A stretch of DNA of 64,000 nt. Source: Pelagibacteraceae bacterium AG-422-B15. GTDB taxonomy: Bacteria > Pseudomonadota > Alphaproteobacteria > Pelagibacterales > AG-422-B15. This document shows, one piece after another, positions 52,907 to 63,339 of this stretch; position 1 is the stretch's first letter, and every line of letters starts with the position of its first letter. The stretch is taken from contig QCMN01000001.1 of the NCBI GenBank assembly GCA_003213715.1, positions 57,956 through 121,955 on the forward strand, written 5' to 3'. The notes under the pieces were generated by a model. It searched no databases, was not told where the DNA came from, and saw only the letters and a list, made by a program, of their open reading frames with translations. Made by a program: the position numbers and the translations under genes.

Positions 52907-52983
52907 TGGCGCGCCGGGAGAGATTCGAACTCCCGACCCCCAGATTCGTAGTCTGGTGCTCTATCCAGCTGAGCCACCGGCGC
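52907..52983 (-). tRNA. tRNA-Arg (anticodon ACG), CCA encoded
   Basis: The reverse complement GCGCCGGTGGCTCAGCTGGATAGAGCACCAGACTACGAATCTGGGGGTCGGGAGTTCGAATCTCTCCCGGCGCGCCA folds by hand into a cloverleaf. It has a 7-bp acceptor stem, GCTC/GAGC D stem, CCAGA/TCTGG anticodon stem and CTACGAA loop. Confidence 0.9.
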
Positions 52984-57943: not shown

Positions 57944-59032
57944 ATGGAAGTCGTTGAACTAACAAAATCACTTATTTCTTGTCCAAGTGTCACACCGAAT
58001 AATGAAGGTGTCTTAGACCTACTTCAAAAGGAACTCACTGACATGGGATTTACATGCAATCGTTATTTATTTAGTGATACCGACACACCCGACGTAGATA
58101 ATTTATTCGCAAAAATTGGCAGTGGTGCTCCACATTTGTGTTTTGGAGGTCATACTGATGTTGTTCCAGTTGGTGATGAAAATGCATGGAATTCAAATCC
58201 ATTTGAGGCCACTGAAAAAAATGGAAAGTTATATGGCCGTGGTGCGAGCGATATGAAATCTGCTATAGCTGCATTTGTTTCAGCAGTAAGAGAATATTTA
58301 GAGAATAATGAGATGAAAGGAACAATAAGTCTCTTAATTACAAATGACGAAGAAGGACCTGCAATCAATGGGACAAGAAAAGTACTAGAAGAAATTTATA
58401 AAAATGGGGAAAAGATAGATAGTTGCTTGGTAGGAGAACCCACATGCCCAAGTAATTTAGGTGAAATGATTAAAATTGGAAGAAGAGGCAGTATTACCAC
58501 GACTATTAAAGTTTCAGGAAAACAAGGTCATGTTGCCTATCCAGAATGGACTCTCAACCCAATAAATCCTCTGACATCAATACTCAATACACTGTGTAAT
58601 TTAGAGCTTGATAAAGGTACAGAAGACTTTCCACCATCAAATATGGAAATTGTTAAAATTGAGTCAAGTGAAGGTGCGACTAATATTGTTCCACAAACCT
58701 CAACTGGAATATTTAATATTCGCTACAATATTAATCACACAAAAGAGAGCCTTCAATCAATGATCAATGAAGTTGTTTCAAAAAATATCAATAATAGTGA
58801 CTATAAAGTTGATGTAACTTTTAACAATTCTGCAGAACCATTTTTAACTGAAAAAGGTAAATTTACAGAGATAGTGAAAAGTTCTGTTGATGAGATTACA
58901 GGAATGAATTCTTCACTTACAACAACAGGCGGAACATCAGATGCAAGATTTTTTAAAGACTACTGCGAGGTAGCGGAGTTTGGACTTATTGGAGAGACCG
59001 CACACCAAATTGATGAAAATGTAAAAAACTGA
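57944..59032 (+). CDS. dapE: Succinyl-diaminopimelate desuccinylase (M20 family). The reading frame ends early, and the conserved C-terminus continues in the +1 frame to 59090.
   Basis: GHTDVVPVGD, GRGASDMKSA and NDEEGPA. The final ~20 residues expected for DapE (EDITKLKEIYSLIITKYFQ) are encoded in the +1 frame after an A6 run at 59023-59028. Confidence 0.85.
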   Translation: MEVVELTKSLISCPSVTPNNEGVLDLLQKELTDMGFTCNRYLFSDTDTPDVDNLFAKIGSGAPHLCFGGHTDVVPVGDENAWNSNPFEATEKNGKLYGRGASDMKSAIAAFVSAVREYLENNEMKGTISLLITNDEEGPAINGTRKVLEEIYKNGEKIDSCLVGEPTCPSNLGEMIKIGRRGSITTTIKVSGKQGHVAYPEWTLNPINPLTSILNTLCNLELDKGTEDFPPSNMEIVKIESSEGATNIVPQTSTGIFNIRYNINHTKESLQSMINEVVSKNINNSDYKVDVTFNNSAEPFLTEKGKFTEIVKSSVDEITGMNSSLTTTGGTSDARFFKDYCEVAEFGLIGETAHQIDENVKN

Positions 59033-59429
59033 GGACATAACTAAGCTGAAAGAAATTTACAGTCTCATAATCACTAAGTACTTTCAATAAAAATCAACTA
59101 TATATCAATTTTAGAGCTATTTAGGTATTATACTATTAGCAACATTAGCATGATGGTCAAAGCTATATCCAATTTAAGGGGGGAAGGATTAAAATTCCAT
59201 CTAGTTCCTAACATAATAAATACCTAAATAATTGCTCCAGCTATTTGAAAAAGAAAGTAAACAGTCAAGATTACTGGGAAAGCCCTAAGAAAGTAGTTAA
59301 ATGATTGCTCGAAAATTTTTTTCATAGTTGTCTATTACAGATTATTTACTGAATTCGGGAGGGGAATAACATGTCAATTTGGCAAAGGCATAAAATTAAT
59401 ATTGATAGCTATTTGATTAGTATGTGGCC

Positions 59430-60836
59430 ATGTTTGATGAAATGTATAGCGATGATGCTCAAATAAGAAAGCACTACTTACAAGTAAATTCTTGGTTAAG
59501 AACCATGTCATCCACGGTCATTAGCCAAAAGAATTTTGAAGCTGAGTCTCATTTTAAAAGAATTGGTATTACATTTTCGGTCAAAGATGATGATATGACT
59601 GAACGAATCATCCCATTTGACCTAATTCCAAGAATTCTAACAAACTACGAATGGGTAAAGATAGAAAAAGGTGTTTTACAAAGAGCGAAAGCTCTAAATT
59701 CTTTTCTTCACGATATTTATAATAGCGGTGAAATTTTTAAGGCGGGTATTGTTCCAAAAGAAATAGTTTATAAAAAATCGTCCTATGATCAGTCTATGAT
59801 CAACTTTTCACCTCCAAGAAAGATTTATAGTCCAATAATTGGTGTTGACTTAGTCAGAACAGGAAAAGATGAGTTTTATGTTTTAGAAGACAACTGTCGG
59901 ACACCATCTGGTGTTTCATACATGTTGGAAAATAGAGAAATCATGATGAAAATGTTTCCTGATTTATTTCATACGAATCGTGTTTTGCGAGTTGATGACT
60001 ATCCTACTAGATTACTGCAGACGCTAATGAGTCTTGCCCCAAAAAAATGTGATAGCAGTATACCAACAGTTGTCTTATTAACTCCAGGCCATTTAAATAG
60101 TGCATATTACGAACATACTTTTTTATCCGACCAAATGGGTATTGAAATGGTGGAGTCACAAGATCTTTTTGTTGAAAATGATTTGCTCTATATGAAGACA
60201 GTTGATGGACCAAAAAAAATAGATGTTGTTTATCGAAGAATTGATGACGAATTTTTAGATCCTCTTTGTTATAACCCGGACTCAGTCATTGGTGTCCCGG
60301 GGATCACTCAAGTTTATAAAACAGGTGGTGTGAATATATGCTCAGCTCCTGGTGCTGGTATCGCAGATGACAAAGCTATTTATATATTTGTCCCTGAAAT
60401 GATAAAATTTTACCTTGGTGAAACACCAATTCTAGATAATGTTGAAACATGGAGATGTGAAAGAGATGACGAATTAAATTATGTATTAGAAAATATTGAA
60501 AAACTTGTAGTGAAAGAGGTTGATGGTTCAGGTGGTTATGGAATGTTAATTGGACCTAAATCTACTAAAGATCAAATTTCAGAGTTCTCTACTAAACTGA
60601 AAAGTAACCCTCGAGGATATATTGCTCAACCAACATTAGACTTATCATCCTCACCAACATTAATAGATAATGAAGTTTCAGGAAGACGAGTTGATTTACG
60701 TCCATTCTGTCTTGTTGGAGAAAAAGTACAATTGTGCCCAGGGGGATTAACAAGAGTTGCATTAAATAAAGGATCGTATGTAGTAAATTCATCACAAGGG
60801 GGAGGAGTAAAGGACACTTGGGTCCTCGCAGATTAA
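59430..60836 (+). CDS. Circularly permuted type 2 ATP-grasp protein (DUF404/DUF407-type amidoligase)
   Basis: MFDEMYS..., GITFSVKDDD..ERIIPFDLIPRIL..EW..IEKGVLQRAKALNSFLHDIY, and EVDGSGGYGMLIGP. The start is the ATG at 59430 (a GTG at 59424 is also possible). Confidence 0.75.
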   Translation: MFDEMYSDDAQIRKHYLQVNSWLRTMSSTVISQKNFEAESHFKRIGITFSVKDDDMTERIIPFDLIPRILTNYEWVKIEKGVLQRAKALNSFLHDIYNSGEIFKAGIVPKEIVYKKSSYDQSMINFSPPRKIYSPIIGVDLVRTGKDEFYVLEDNCRTPSGVSYMLENREIMMKMFPDLFHTNRVLRVDDYPTRLLQTLMSLAPKKCDSSIPTVVLLTPGHLNSAYYEHTFLSDQMGIEMVESQDLFVENDLLYMKTVDGPKKIDVVYRRIDDEFLDPLCYNPDSVIGVPGITQVYKTGGVNICSAPGAGIADDKAIYIFVPEMIKFYLGETPILDNVETWRCERDDELNYVLENIEKLVVKEVDGSGGYGMLIGPKSTKDQISEFSTKLKSNPRGYIAQPTLDLSSSPTLIDNEVSGRRVDLRPFCLVGEKVQLCPGGLTRVALNKGSYVVNSSQGGGVKDTWVLAD

Positions 60837-60837
60837 C

Positions 60838-61773
60838 ATGCTAAGCAGAACAGCAGAGAATCTTTACTGGATTAGTAGATATATGGAAAGAGCAGAAACT
60901 ATGGCACGCCTTCTTGATGTGGGTTATAGAATGTCCTTGTTTCCTAACCCTAAAGGCTACCATAATGAATGGGACTCGGTATTATCAGCTGCGGGTGCTG
61001 CTCAAGGTTACTTTACTAAATACAATGAAATAAATCAGGAAAATGTTGAGGATTATATTTTTTTTGACGAAGAAAATCCTTCCTCTGTGTACAGCTGTAT
61101 ATCCAAAGCTAGAAATAATGCCCTATTAGTGCGGACTGCATTCACCCCTGAGGCATGGGTAGCAATTAATAAGTCATACAAAGAGATATTGGAGCTTAAA
61201 AATAAAAAATTTACTCGTGCTGATCTACCAAACTTTACTGAATGGACTATTCAACAAGTAAATATGTTTCGGGGATCAGCAAACTCATTATTACGTAACG
61301 ACGGATACCATTTTATATTTCTTGGCACATTCATTGAACGAGCAGATAATTCTGCAAGATTGCTTGATGTAAAATATTTTGTACTACTTCCTACTGCTGA
61401 TTATATAGGGGGAAATCTTGATAATTTACAATGGATTATACTTTTACGATCACTATCTTCATTTCGCGCTTTTAGATGGGCTTATGATGGAGACGTGACC
61501 TCAACAAAAATTGCTCATTTTTTCATACTTAATAATGATTGTTCACGTTCTTTAAGTTTTTGTATAAATAATATTGTTTATCATCTTAATTGTTTGAAAT
61601 GCAGTCCTGAGAAAATCAGTGATATTTACTCTGGCCTAAAATCAGTTCATAATTCTGTAAAAGACGAAACTGTCGAGTCAATTATTGAATATGGTTTACA
61701 TGAGTATGTGACCAATTTTGTATCGAAGATATCTTTCTTAGACAATCAAATTCAAAATCATTTTTTTAGGTAG
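60838..61773 (+). CDS. Alpha-E domain protein (DUF403)
   Basis: The N-terminus MLSRTAENLYWISRYMERAETMARLLDV and a second repeat FLGTFIERADNSARLLDVKY are characteristic of the alpha-E family. Confidence 0.7.
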   Translation: MLSRTAENLYWISRYMERAETMARLLDVGYRMSLFPNPKGYHNEWDSVLSAAGAAQGYFTKYNEINQENVEDYIFFDEENPSSVYSCISKARNNALLVRTAFTPEAWVAINKSYKEILELKNKKFTRADLPNFTEWTIQQVNMFRGSANSLLRNDGYHFIFLGTFIERADNSARLLDVKYFVLLPTADYIGGNLDNLQWIILLRSLSSFRAFRWAYDGDVTSTKIAHFFILNNDCSRSLSFCINNIVYHLNCLKCSPEKISDIYSGLKSVHNSVKDETVESIIEYGLHEYVTNFVSKISFLDNQIQNHFFR

Positions 61774-61776
61774 ATT

Positions 61777-62598
61777 ATGTTACTTACAATCAATCATACA
61801 ACAAATTATGAATATGATGATAACCTATTAGGGTTAATTCAAACAACAAAGTTGACTCCATCACCCTACAATGGTCTTAAAATATTGAATTGGACTGTAA
61901 AAAGAAATAACAAATCTGGTGGTGAGATATTTAGAGATGGAGAGGGAAATAATATAATTAACTTCAAAGGCGAGCCATCAGAAAAGGAAATTAAATTTGT
62001 AGTTAAAGGAGAAGTTGAAACAATTGATACAAATGGAGTATATGAAAGTTTGAATGATAAAATCGATCCTTATGTCTATTTAAGAAATACAATTTTAACA
62101 CTACCAAATAATAAAATAAAAGAGCTAGCTTCTATTGCCTCAAAAGATAGCTCAAATGAAGACACCGTAACTATTGCTCATGATTTAATGCTCTTGATTG
62201 CAAAAAAAATTAAATATGAACCGTATACCACCAATACAAACACGACTGCAGCTATGTCAATAGATCAAGAGAAGGGTGTTTGCCAAGATCAAGCACATAT
62301 AATGATTTCCGCTGCTAGATACTTGGGCATTCCCTCAAGATATGTAAATGGCTACATGCATAAAAATAGAAATGACTCTGAATTTCAAGCTACACACGCA
62401 TGGGCTGAACTTTATATAGATCAACTTGGTTGGGTTGGCTTTGATCCTACAAATCAATGTTGTCCTGATGAGAGATATATTCGAGTTTCGTGCGGCTTAG
62501 ACGCAAGTTATGCGGCGCCAATCAGAGGGATCTTTTATGGTAACACTGCAGAAAAATTAGATATAGATGTTCAAACAATTGAAAACTGCTCACAATAA
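61777..62598 (+). CDS. Transglutaminase-like cysteine peptidase-fold protein with the bacterial transglutaminase N-terminal domain
   Basis: The Cys-His-Asp triad contexts are GVCQDQAHIM, THAWAELY and GFDPTN. The N-terminus is MLLTINHTTNYEYD. Confidence 0.8.
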   Translation: MLLTINHTTNYEYDDNLLGLIQTTKLTPSPYNGLKILNWTVKRNNKSGGEIFRDGEGNNIINFKGEPSEKEIKFVVKGEVETIDTNGVYESLNDKIDPYVYLRNTILTLPNNKIKELASIASKDSSNEDTVTIAHDLMLLIAKKIKYEPYTTNTNTTAAMSIDQEKGVCQDQAHIMISAARYLGIPSRYVNGYMHKNRNDSEFQATHAWAELYIDQLGWVGFDPTNQCCPDERYIRVSCGLDASYAAPIRGIFYGNTAEKLDIDVQTIENCSQ

Positions 62599-63339
62599 TT
62601 AGTATTTAACCTCCATAAAATATAACCCCTCAGGAGGAGCAAGTGCTCCACATTTAGAGCGATCTTTTGAGTTAAACGCTTTTTCAAAGTCGCCAAGTGA
62701 CCAACTTTTTTCTCCAACTAACTTTAAACTACCAACAATTGATCTAACTTGATGATGCAGAAATGATTTTGCAGTGAAACCAAAATAGATATTTTCTTCT
62801 GATTGGCTAATTTTTAGACTGTCTAAAGTTTTTATTGGACTATCAGATTGACAATGAGCTGAACGGAATGTTGTAAAGTCGTGCTGACCCTCAATCGAAG
62901 AAATGCATTCCTGCATCAAATCAACGTCAATGTCTTTATGTACTTGCCAAGCTCTTCCCTTCTCAATAGTGAGTGGTGACTTTCTGTTTACTATTCTATA
63001 AAGGTATTTTCTTTGAGTTGCATCAAATCTTGCATGAAAATCATTATCTGCTTTCTCTACTTCTAATATGGAAATTGGAAATGGCCTCAAGTGGTCGTTT
63101 AATGCGTTCTTAATTACATATGGTTCAAATAATTTGTCTGTAACATCAAAATGAGCAACCTGCCCCATTGCGTGAACACCTGCATCTGTTCTACCGGCCC
63201 CAAAGATAGTAATGTTTTCCTCAAATATATTATTTATTGCTTTTTCAATACACCCTTGAACTGATTGTCCATTTTCTTGTCTTTGCCATCCTACAAACGG
63301 AGTGCCATCATACTCAATTTTTATTTTGTACCTGTTCAT
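62599..63339 (-). CDS. truA: tRNA pseudouridine(38-40) synthase
   Basis: YKIKIEYDGTPFVGWQRQ, the catalytic Asp context GAGRTDAGVHA, and HHQVRSIVG. Confidence 0.9.
   Translation of the reverse strand: MNRYKIKIEYDGTPFVGWQRQENGQSVQGCIEKAINNIFEENITIFGAGRTDAGVHAMGQVAHFDVTDKLFEPYVIKNALNDHLRPFPISILEVEKADNDFHARFDATQRKYLYRIVNRKSPLTIEKGRAWQVHKDIDVDLMQECISSIEGQHDFTTFRSAHCQSDSPIKTLDSLKISQSEENIYFGFTAKSFLHHQVRSIVGSLKLVGEKSWSLGDFEKAFNSKDRSKCGALAPPEGLYFMEVKY

Follow-up and report, generated by a model that had tools for sequence, protein, structure and literature searches.

An Anbu-less SAR11 operon of ATP-grasp, Alpha-E and transglutaminase-like genes has orthologues with predicted glutamine-riboswitch or sigma-54 control

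What do three adjoining genes from recognizable protein families do for the cell when the operon that they form is known and still unexplained? This question is raised by positions 59430-62598 of a 64 kb stretch of DNA (the window) from a Pelagibacteraceae (SAR11) single-cell genome, which encode a circularly permuted ATP-grasp protein, an Alpha-E protein and a transglutaminase-like protein (together, the triad). Few conserved bacterial operons of undefined function are as widespread as the triad, which bears on the debate over the origin of the proteasome through Anbu, a proteasome-like protein encoded beside it in other bacteria. The window's operon is an Anbu-less, riboswitch-less SAR11 member of this family. 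A preliminary description of the window had called the function experimentally undefined, and we found no defining biochemistry in the literature reachable here. The most informative clue to function, which that description missed, lies in the context of nitrogen regulation. As SAR11 orthologues lie behind predicted glutamine riboswitches and proteobacterial copies lie behind sigma-54/NtrC promoters, the search for a substrate and a phenotype should turn to nitrogen shifts and glutamine levels.

The three open reading frames (ORFs) occupy the + strand and are separated by 1 and 3 nucleotides (nt). They are followed by a convergent truA gene (246 amino acids; TIGR00071, 6e-58, and TruA also by Pfam), and the stop codons of truA and of the third gene are adjacent at 62598/62599, leaving a 0-nt gap. 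In all these respects the ORF map agrees with what had been described. The ATP-grasp ORF begins with the ATG at 59430, which is conserved in all relatives in the alignment; a GTG at 59424 is a possible upstream alternative, and was set aside since the relatives keep the ATG. Profile hidden Markov model searches bear out the three family assignments made previously. The first two proteins gave full-length Pfam matches far above the gathering cut-offs: CP_ATPgrasp_2 (PF14403; 3.4e-153, 510.5 bits, profile positions 1-374 of 374, cut-off 32 bits), CP_ATPgrasp_1 (PF04174; 8e-137, 456.1 bits, 1-332 of 332, cut-off 23.1 bits) and Alpha-E (PF04168; 7e-83, 279.2 bits, 1-294 of 294, cut-off 20.8 bits). 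The domain matches of the third protein are likewise full-length and above their cut-offs, namely Transglut_core (PF01841; 8.1e-22, 78 bits, cut-off 23 bits) and Bact_transglu_N (PF08379; 8.9e-10, 39.6 bits, cut-off 27 bits). None of the three is covered by an NCBIfam model.

A scan of species-representative genomes with the ATP-grasp protein returned 586 relatives, of which the best 80 were retained as loci, and the comparative set consists of 82 fetched loci that range from SAR11 to Burkholderia. In 75 of these the genes follow the order ATP-grasp, Alpha-E, transglutaminase-like; contig ends truncate six of the seven that do not. Among the best 80 of the 586, the closest ATP-grasp relatives (99-100% identity) come from Pelagibacteraceae single-cell genomes. 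The SAR11-type loci form three groups, which are monophyletic in a neighbour-joining tree. Group A, to which the window belongs, has 34-35% G+C and carries the operon with dapE on one side and truA on the other. Groups B and C (loci L016-L035 and L068, 21 in total) have 27-30% G+C and the same three genes, with an ATP-grasp protein 73-76% identical to that of the window; their neighbouring genes are unlike those of group A and unlike one another's.

All 21 group B and C loci carry two tandem glutamine aptamers (RF01739) in the 5′ leader, on the operon strand, with scores of 58-66 bits (E 5e-12 to 7e-10; gathering score, 35 bits). The gene upstream of the aptamers differs by group, being a CDP-alcohol phosphatidyltransferase in one and an EamA transporter in the other, and the aptamers therefore belong to the triad. 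The same leaders contain an 11-bp long-range helix, in which a conserved segment pairs with the inter-aptamer linker and brackets the second aptamer; because this helix is invariant, it is without support from covariation. A hairpin exposes GAAAGG or GAAGGAG, and an upstream open reading frame (uORF) of 16-20 codons stops at most 8 nt from the ATP-grasp ATG, overlapping it in most loci. The uORF peptides are very different between loci despite the kept end position. This arrangement suggests that translation of the uORF is controlled and coupled to that of the operon.

A second type of nitrogen-linked control is predicted in other proteobacteria. Sigma-54 sites were scored as the number of positions matched out of 12 in the consensus, the promoter form being GG-N10-GC, and seven of the nine Burkholderia loci have boxes of the type aGGCACG-N4-TTGCT (10-11 of 12 positions) ~85-90 nt upstream. 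These boxes match the published dependence of the Burkholderia cenocepacia operon I35_5080-83 on NtrC and sigma-54, its four genes changing by -8.2, -9.4, -9.4 and -6.0 in an ntrC mutant (PMC5491218). That operon (I35_5080-5083; DUF404/407, DUF403, transglutaminase-like and large transglutaminase-like proteins) has the same triad in the same order as the window, with ~54% ATP-grasp identity; the transglutaminase-DUF2126 fusion, the sigma-54 box and, in seven loci, a Ser in place of Cys are found in Burkholderia and not in the window. One sigma-54-type box, TGGCATAGTTTTTGCA, is present in a marine Rhodobiaceae metagenome-assembled genome (MAG), and in the high-G+C Rhodobacterales loci the scores are no better than those of the reverse strand. 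For Bradyrhizobium, the gene is listed with an upstream sigma-54 box (PMC13207237), and in Pseudomonas putida the operon is the most induced under nitrogen limitation (note added in proof of PMC3235984; PMC5666114). The SAR11 loci scanned have no sigma-54 box, which fits the absence of NtrB/NtrC and PII from SAR11 (PMC3870248).

The four operon domains also co-vary with urea-metabolism domains in marine metagenomes (PMC3597751). This is echoed in group C, where a urease cluster (ureC, ureE, ureF and ureG) lies 4-7 kb upstream of the triad; the matches to Rfam '5_ureB_sRNA' at this cluster correspond to the antisense strand of ureC.

The targets reported for the glutamine riboswitch are PII, glutamine synthetase, glutamate synthase, ammonium transporters, PMT1479 and gifB, and its genomic occurrences are cyanobacterial, with additional unassigned marine metagenome sequences (PMC2864571, PMC6212724). 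It is mentioned in passing for a Pelagibacter MAG (PMC12379486) and for marine phages (PMC9004378). No paper in the literature searched here links it to the present operon, the full list of glnA-RNA targets being unchecked. What is new here is the tie between triad orthologues and predicted glutamine-riboswitch and sigma-54 control, to which we add an operator-like element in the window and an Alpha-E protein that has no solved structural counterpart.

In place of the tandem aptamers, long-range helix and coupled uORF of groups B and C, the window's lineage carries, within the gap between dapE and the operon (390 nt in the window), a pair of small ORFs on the minus strand together with an imperfect inverted repeat of 13 bp. 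The repeat, TGTCAATTTGGCA, opens a conserved block (Table 1) and is located exactly 58 nt before the ATG in 16 of 16 group A sequences. It is kept in relatives whose ATP-grasp proteins are 81-87% identical and whose flanks have diverged, and its only exact copy in the 64 kb window, as in each locus, is the one at this site. The TGTCAnnnTGGCA element looks like a protein-binding site, and we regard it as a candidate operator or promoter element. A reading of its TGGCA as the -24 box of a sigma-54 promoter was rejected, there being no GC at the -12 spacing; a sigma-70 reading fits poorly, and a generic promoter scan gave 13 sites compared with 20.1 in shuffled sequence. The two small ORFs (33 and 28 amino acids) share a reading frame, are divided by a stop codon that relatives share, and have no Pfam match. 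The second peptide, M[LF]GT[RK]WNFNPSP[LI]KLDIALTI..., is hydrophobic and is conserved at the protein level even where the ATP-grasp proteins are 81-87% identical.

Given these genomic contexts and the families involved, we favour the view that the three genes are translated together from one operon and that their products form an ATP-driven module for making and cleaving amide bonds, with a tie to nitrogen status. We propose this tentatively, and judge its chance of being correct as a whole to fall somewhat short of even. The circularly permuted ATP-grasp protein would activate a carboxylate, most plausibly that of a glutamyl group or peptide, as an acyl-phosphate and would ligate it to an amine. 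Alpha-E would be an obligate helical partner that serves as adaptor, specificity subunit or acceptor, and the transglutaminase-like Cys-His-Asp enzyme would cleave or transfer the resulting (iso)peptide or gamma-glutamyl bond. Together, the ATP-grasp protein and the thiol enzyme would write and erase a peptide-type modification, and Anbu or DUF2126 fusions, where present, would extend the same logic of making and cleaving. We infer this chemistry from family homology, and the physical partnership of the three proteins and the substrates are likewise put forward as conjecture. The likeliest substrates would be peptide- or protein-linked glutamyl or glutaminyl groups, a peptide or protein being favoured by the sister operons that add the proteasome-like Anbu or a transglutaminase-DUF2126 fusion.

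Proposals of this kind have been made before. As relayed in the passages of three later papers that cite it, a 2009 study by Iyer et al. predicted an Anbu-operon/peptide-ligase system (PMC3495828, PMC5666114, PMC6376114), and a passage in the first of these reports the prediction of the Aravind group that the transglutaminase-like peptidase reverses tags put on by the ATP-grasp ligase (PMC3495828). The attribution of the operon to the amidoligase systems of Iyer, Aravind and co-workers in the preliminary description matches what these passages say. In the Anbu structure papers, the hypotheses on the operon are described as still unconfirmed (PMC5666114, PMC6376114).

The ATP-grasp protein aligns end to end with PDB 3N6X (E 1e-174; ~60% identity, estimated by eye), and this similarity implies that it would share the same fold. 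We found no PDB relative beyond this one with the single sequence or with a 15-sequence profile, and the 3N6X entry provides a structure alone, with no activity attached to it. An AlphaFold2 model computed from a 31-sequence alignment is of low confidence (predicted local distance difference test [pLDDT], 49.8; predicted template modelling score [pTM], 0.38). Across 82 sequences, conservation is at least 97% at 172 positions, including L152-E-D-N-x-R-x-P-S-G161, which we take to be the Mg/phosphate-binding E-x-N...P-G motif of ATP-grasp proteins, shifted by the circular permutation.

The 3N6X entry, from structural genomics, was deposited as a 'putative glutathionylspermidine synthase', and as the closest solved structure it directs attention to substrates of another kind. 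The ATP-grasp protein might make a gamma-glutamyl-amine, a polyamine conjugate or a dipeptide-like compound that the thiol enzyme hydrolyses, giving a small-molecule amide cycle that could be analogous to glutathionylspermidine synthetase/amidase and could serve nitrogen storage or scavenging. The name is merely a structural-genomics label, and the PDB searches gave no characterised ATP-grasp enzyme. Several observations suit such a cycle. A Yersinia ATP-grasp homologue hydrolyses ATP with release of phosphate and without a protein partner, no complexes being detectable (PMC6376114), and the operon in B. cenocepacia shares its regulon with urease, polyamine and amino-acid transporters and small-molecule catabolic genes (PMC5491218). 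The co-variation with urea metabolism (PMC3597751) and the urease cluster near the triad in group C point in the same direction, and the SAR11 triad has no adjoining Anbu, so that a protease partner is not required. Sister operons, however, recruit a proteasome-like peptidase, the solved relatives of the transglutaminase-like protein are annotated as protein-directed enzymes, and a two-enzyme cycle has no obvious place for Alpha-E. On balance we consider a small-molecule cycle rather unlikely, albeit a serious contender.

Returning to the proposed peptide-modifying module, the residues that would cleave or transfer the bond are well conserved. C169, H207 and D223 of the transglutaminase-like protein align with the triads of PDB 3ISR and of TgpA (6G49). 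The His and Asp are invariant in 76 sequences; the Cys is present in 69 of these, and the other seven, all from Burkholderia loci (L072, L073, L074, L076, L078, L079 and L080), have a Ser (GTSRD versus GVCQD) with His and Asp retained. The Burkholderia variant may use a serine nucleophile or may be an inactive form, and it is of interest beside the serine-protease behaviour claimed for Mycobacterium tuberculosis Rv2569c.

The M. tuberculosis genes Rv2411c-Rv2409c and Rv2567-Rv2569c presumably belong to the same families as the window's triad. Rv2569c has been reported as a secreted 'serine protease' on the basis of a contested in vitro activity, which was inhibited by 4-(2-aminoethyl)benzenesulfonyl fluoride (AEBSF) and phenylmethylsulfonyl fluoride (PMSF) and not by thiol-protease inhibitors (PMC11081392). 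As the latter were ineffective, the result sits awkwardly with a Cys-His-Asp enzyme. Rv2411c and Rv2567 were excluded as GABA (gamma-aminobutyrate)-trehalose synthetases (bioRxiv 10.64898/2026.04.15.718621), and neither study defines the system.

If the degradation of several proteins by Rv2569c in vitro (PMC11081392) is taken at face value, the operon might serve purely degradative nitrogen recycling, in which the transglutaminase-like protein, as a protease or deamidase, frees amino acids or ammonia when the cell is under nitrogen stress, and the ATP-grasp and Alpha-E proteins are no ligases but only ATP-dependent regulators or substrate handlers. The induction by nitrogen limitation has indeed been interpreted as raised protein turnover (PMC3235984, PMC5666114). 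The Rv2569c activity may reflect a contaminant, though, since it was blocked by serine- and not thiol-protease inhibitors (PMC11081392), and the binding of proteasome inhibitors by Anbu, whose authors favour degradation over peptide synthesis (PMC5666114), is to be set against the failure to detect Anbu peptidase activity (PMC6376114). Moreover, the ATP-grasp domain is a ligase fold, and its 172 near-invariant positions in 82 sequences are expected of a working catalytic site and not of a regulatory relic. We therefore hold a purely degradative role to be improbable. Rv2569c has also been reported to be secreted and to cleave E-cadherin (PMC11081392), but it is barely credible that the third gene encodes such an exported protease with external or host proteins as its targets. 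The N-terminus of the window's protein, MLLTINHTTNYEYDD, has no hydrophobic, signal-peptide-like segment, the gene is translationally packed with those of two cytoplasmic-type proteins, and it is conserved in free-living oligotrophs, for which a host-directed role would make no sense.

The partner envisaged for the two enzymes, Alpha-E, contains two invariant motifs, ERAExxARL at residues 17-25 and ERADxxARL at residues 167-175 (E17-R18 and E167-R168). These two copies of ER-A-(E/D)-x-x-A-R-L indicate that the protein is internally duplicated. Its AlphaFold2 model has 15 helices (pLDDT 85, pTM 0.86). No PDB relative was found by sequence or by multi-sequence profile, and a Foldseek comparison of the model with the PDB gave nothing meaningful (best E 0.54, template modelling score ≤0.29); weak matches to diiron HDO-type enzymes and to designed helical bundles were rejected as noise.

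In Pseudomonas, Yersinia, Cytophaga and many alphaproteobacteria, the Anbu operon (COG2308, COG2307, COG1305 and Anbu) begins with the window's three genes in the same order, and the ATP-grasp proteins of the Anbu-linked alphaproteobacterial operons are 57-62% identical to that of the window. For the ATP-grasp protein of Cereibacter sphaeroides the identity is 61%. The three COGs usually share an operon with Anbu, and COG2308 also occurs without it (Valas & Bourne 2008, PMC3235984). Structures of Anbu have been solved, and neither peptidase activity nor a complex with the operon's other proteins was detected (Fuchs et al. 2017, PMC5666114; Piasecka et al. 2018, PMC6376114). For a search of the window's ORFs of at least 70 amino acids and of the fetched loci (E≤1), an Anbu profile was built from three proteins that adjoin related triads, each verified against PF00227 (Proteasome). 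Anbu was found downstream of the triad in 24 non-SAR11 alphaproteobacterial loci, directly so in all but one, and the gene after the triad matches PF00227 in three non-SAR11 loci; in contrast, there was no match in the window or in the 36 related SAR11 loci. The absence of Anbu noted in the preliminary description thus stands for these sequences, the whole genome lying outside the search. In the neighbour-joining tree, the immediate sister of SAR11 is the marine Rhodobiaceae MAG (L067), in which no Anbu was detected, and next comes an Anbu-bearing Rhodospirillaceae locus (L069). Taken together with the Anbu search, this branching suggests a loss of Anbu from the SAR11 operon. The Burkholderia loci instead carry a fusion of ~1140 amino acids in the operon that joins a transglutaminase domain to DUF2126 ('putative amidoligase').

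The Pup-proteasome system comprises the PafA ligase, the Dop deamidase/depupylase and the 20S proteasome, and is linked to nutrient or nitrogen starvation. By analogy only, the triad resembles it in combining an ATP-dependent carboxylate-amine ligase with a bond-reversing amidase and, in sister operons, a proteasome-type peptidase. The folds are unrelated, however, as the Pup enzymes are glutamine-synthetase-like and not ATP-grasp proteins and include no papain-like enzyme, and no small tag protein was identified for the triad.

Several results weigh against the proposed nitrogen-linked, peptide-modifying module, and they begin with the window itself. It contains no glutamine aptamer at the gathering score, nor at E≤10 in the region 58900-59600, and an aptamer profile made from the group B and C copies found nothing in the window. 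There is no sigma-54 box in the window, where the best site matches 5 of 12 positions and lies inside dapE, and the leader folds no more stably than shuffled sequences (z = +1.42) and has no Rfam match. Because the leader is without an aptamer, a sigma-54 box or a stable RNA fold, nitrogen control of the window's copy is an extrapolation from its orthologues. The two controls seen in those orthologues may also be opposite in direction, since glutamine switches expression on through the characterised riboswitch (PMC6212724) and the proteobacterial operons are induced by nitrogen limitation. The main text of a study of the Candidatus P. ubique proteome and transcriptome under nitrogen limitation does not mention the triad genes (PMC3870248). 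Pull-downs of the Yersinia operon proteins gave no specific complexes (PMC6376114), and the literature reachable here demonstrates neither a substrate nor a product nor a complex for any member. Finally, the role assigned to Alpha-E is a guess, its modelled fold being without a solved counterpart.

A bolder version of the proposal can nevertheless be stated for SAR11, and we regard it as possible but doubtful. The module would be a direct output of glutamine sensing, through tandem type-1 glutamine riboswitches and a coupled uORF in two lineages and through a protein-bound operator in that of the window. It would act on amide bonds derived from glutamine or glutamate, by gamma-glutamyl tagging or Gln deamidation, in a minimal nitrogen-homeostasis circuit. 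If this were true, it would provide the first ligand-level functional anchor for the Anbu-operon family, an enigma since about 2008, and the known targets of the glutamine riboswitch would come to include a further gene class and a further bacterial group.

Whatever its substrate, the triad is evidently maintained by selection. Against SAR11 orthologues, the proportion of non-synonymous differences (pN) is 0.06-0.27 in the three genes compared with a saturated proportion of synonymous differences (pS) of 0.63-0.79, a pattern that points to strong purifying selection on all three and that is not due to chance. The window's lineage is abundant in marine data, as one exact ATP-grasp sequence is found on 261 contigs and 790 members make up the 90% cluster of the Alpha-E protein. 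The window's copy shows that an Anbu-less core is retained, by strong purifying selection, in an organism that ranks among the most streamlined and abundant on Earth.

Table 1. Positions of the triad, its leader elements and nearby features. Coordinates refer to the window unless a locus is given.
Feature	Position	Strand	Basis or remark
Circularly permuted ATP-grasp protein, 468 amino acids	59430..60836	+	Pfam; predicted ATP-dependent carboxylate-amine ligase
Alpha-E protein, 311 amino acids	60838..61773	+	Pfam; all-helical, internally duplicated partner
Transglutaminase-like protein, 273 amino acids	61777..62598	+	Pfam; Bact_transglu_N and papain-like thiol core
Predicted catalytic Cys169	62281-62283	+	Alignment with 3ISR and 6G49
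Predicted catalytic His207	62395-62397	+	Alignment with 3ISR and 6G49
Predicted catalytic Asp223	62443-62445	+	Alignment with 3ISR and 6G49
13-bp imperfect inverted repeat TGTCAATTTGGCA	59372..59384	+	Starts ~28-nt conserved block TGTCAnnnTGGCAAnnnCATnAAATTAA
Leader with tandem glutamine aptamers (the aptamers at 7762-7884 in L016)	L016:7762-8001, L017:7754-8001, L033:7757-8001 and 18 further loci		RF01739
First small ORF, 33 amino acids	59224-59325	-	
Second small ORF, 28 amino acids	59128-59214	-	
truA	62599-63339	-	TIGR00071, Pfam
Terminator-like hairpins	62644-62661 and 62689-62701	+	T-rich tails; within truA 3′ end
Urease cluster of group C	L033:548-3947; also L034, L035		
4HBT_2 thioesterase	L011:7257-7673	-	Between dapE and ATP-grasp gene
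ORF of 214 amino acids, family unassigned	L011:11205-11849	-	Between transglutaminase-like gene and truA
dapE	57944-59032		362 amino acids
tRNA-Arg (ACG)	52907-52983	-	Rfam or ARAGORN

The borders of the operon vary within group A. The flush junction with truA is not universal, because some relatives have extra genes inserted at the operon borders (L011, and also L012 and L063); in L011 there is one insertion on each side of the triad (Table 1). As the intergenic gap in the window is 0 nt, the transcript of the triad may be terminated by the two terminator-like hairpins that lie inside truA.

On the other side of the operon, the dapE ORF is 362 amino acids long in the window compared with 381 in all SAR11 relatives. 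At the 3′ end of dapE (59018-59032), a run of A's has one extra A ('gtaaaaaactg' versus 'gt-aaaaactg'), and the conserved C-terminus EDITKLKEIYSLIITKYFQ continues in another frame, so that the shortening reflects either a homopolymer sequencing error or a genuine frameshift. The sole RNA gene in the window by Rfam or ARAGORN is a tRNA-Arg (ACG) on the minus strand.

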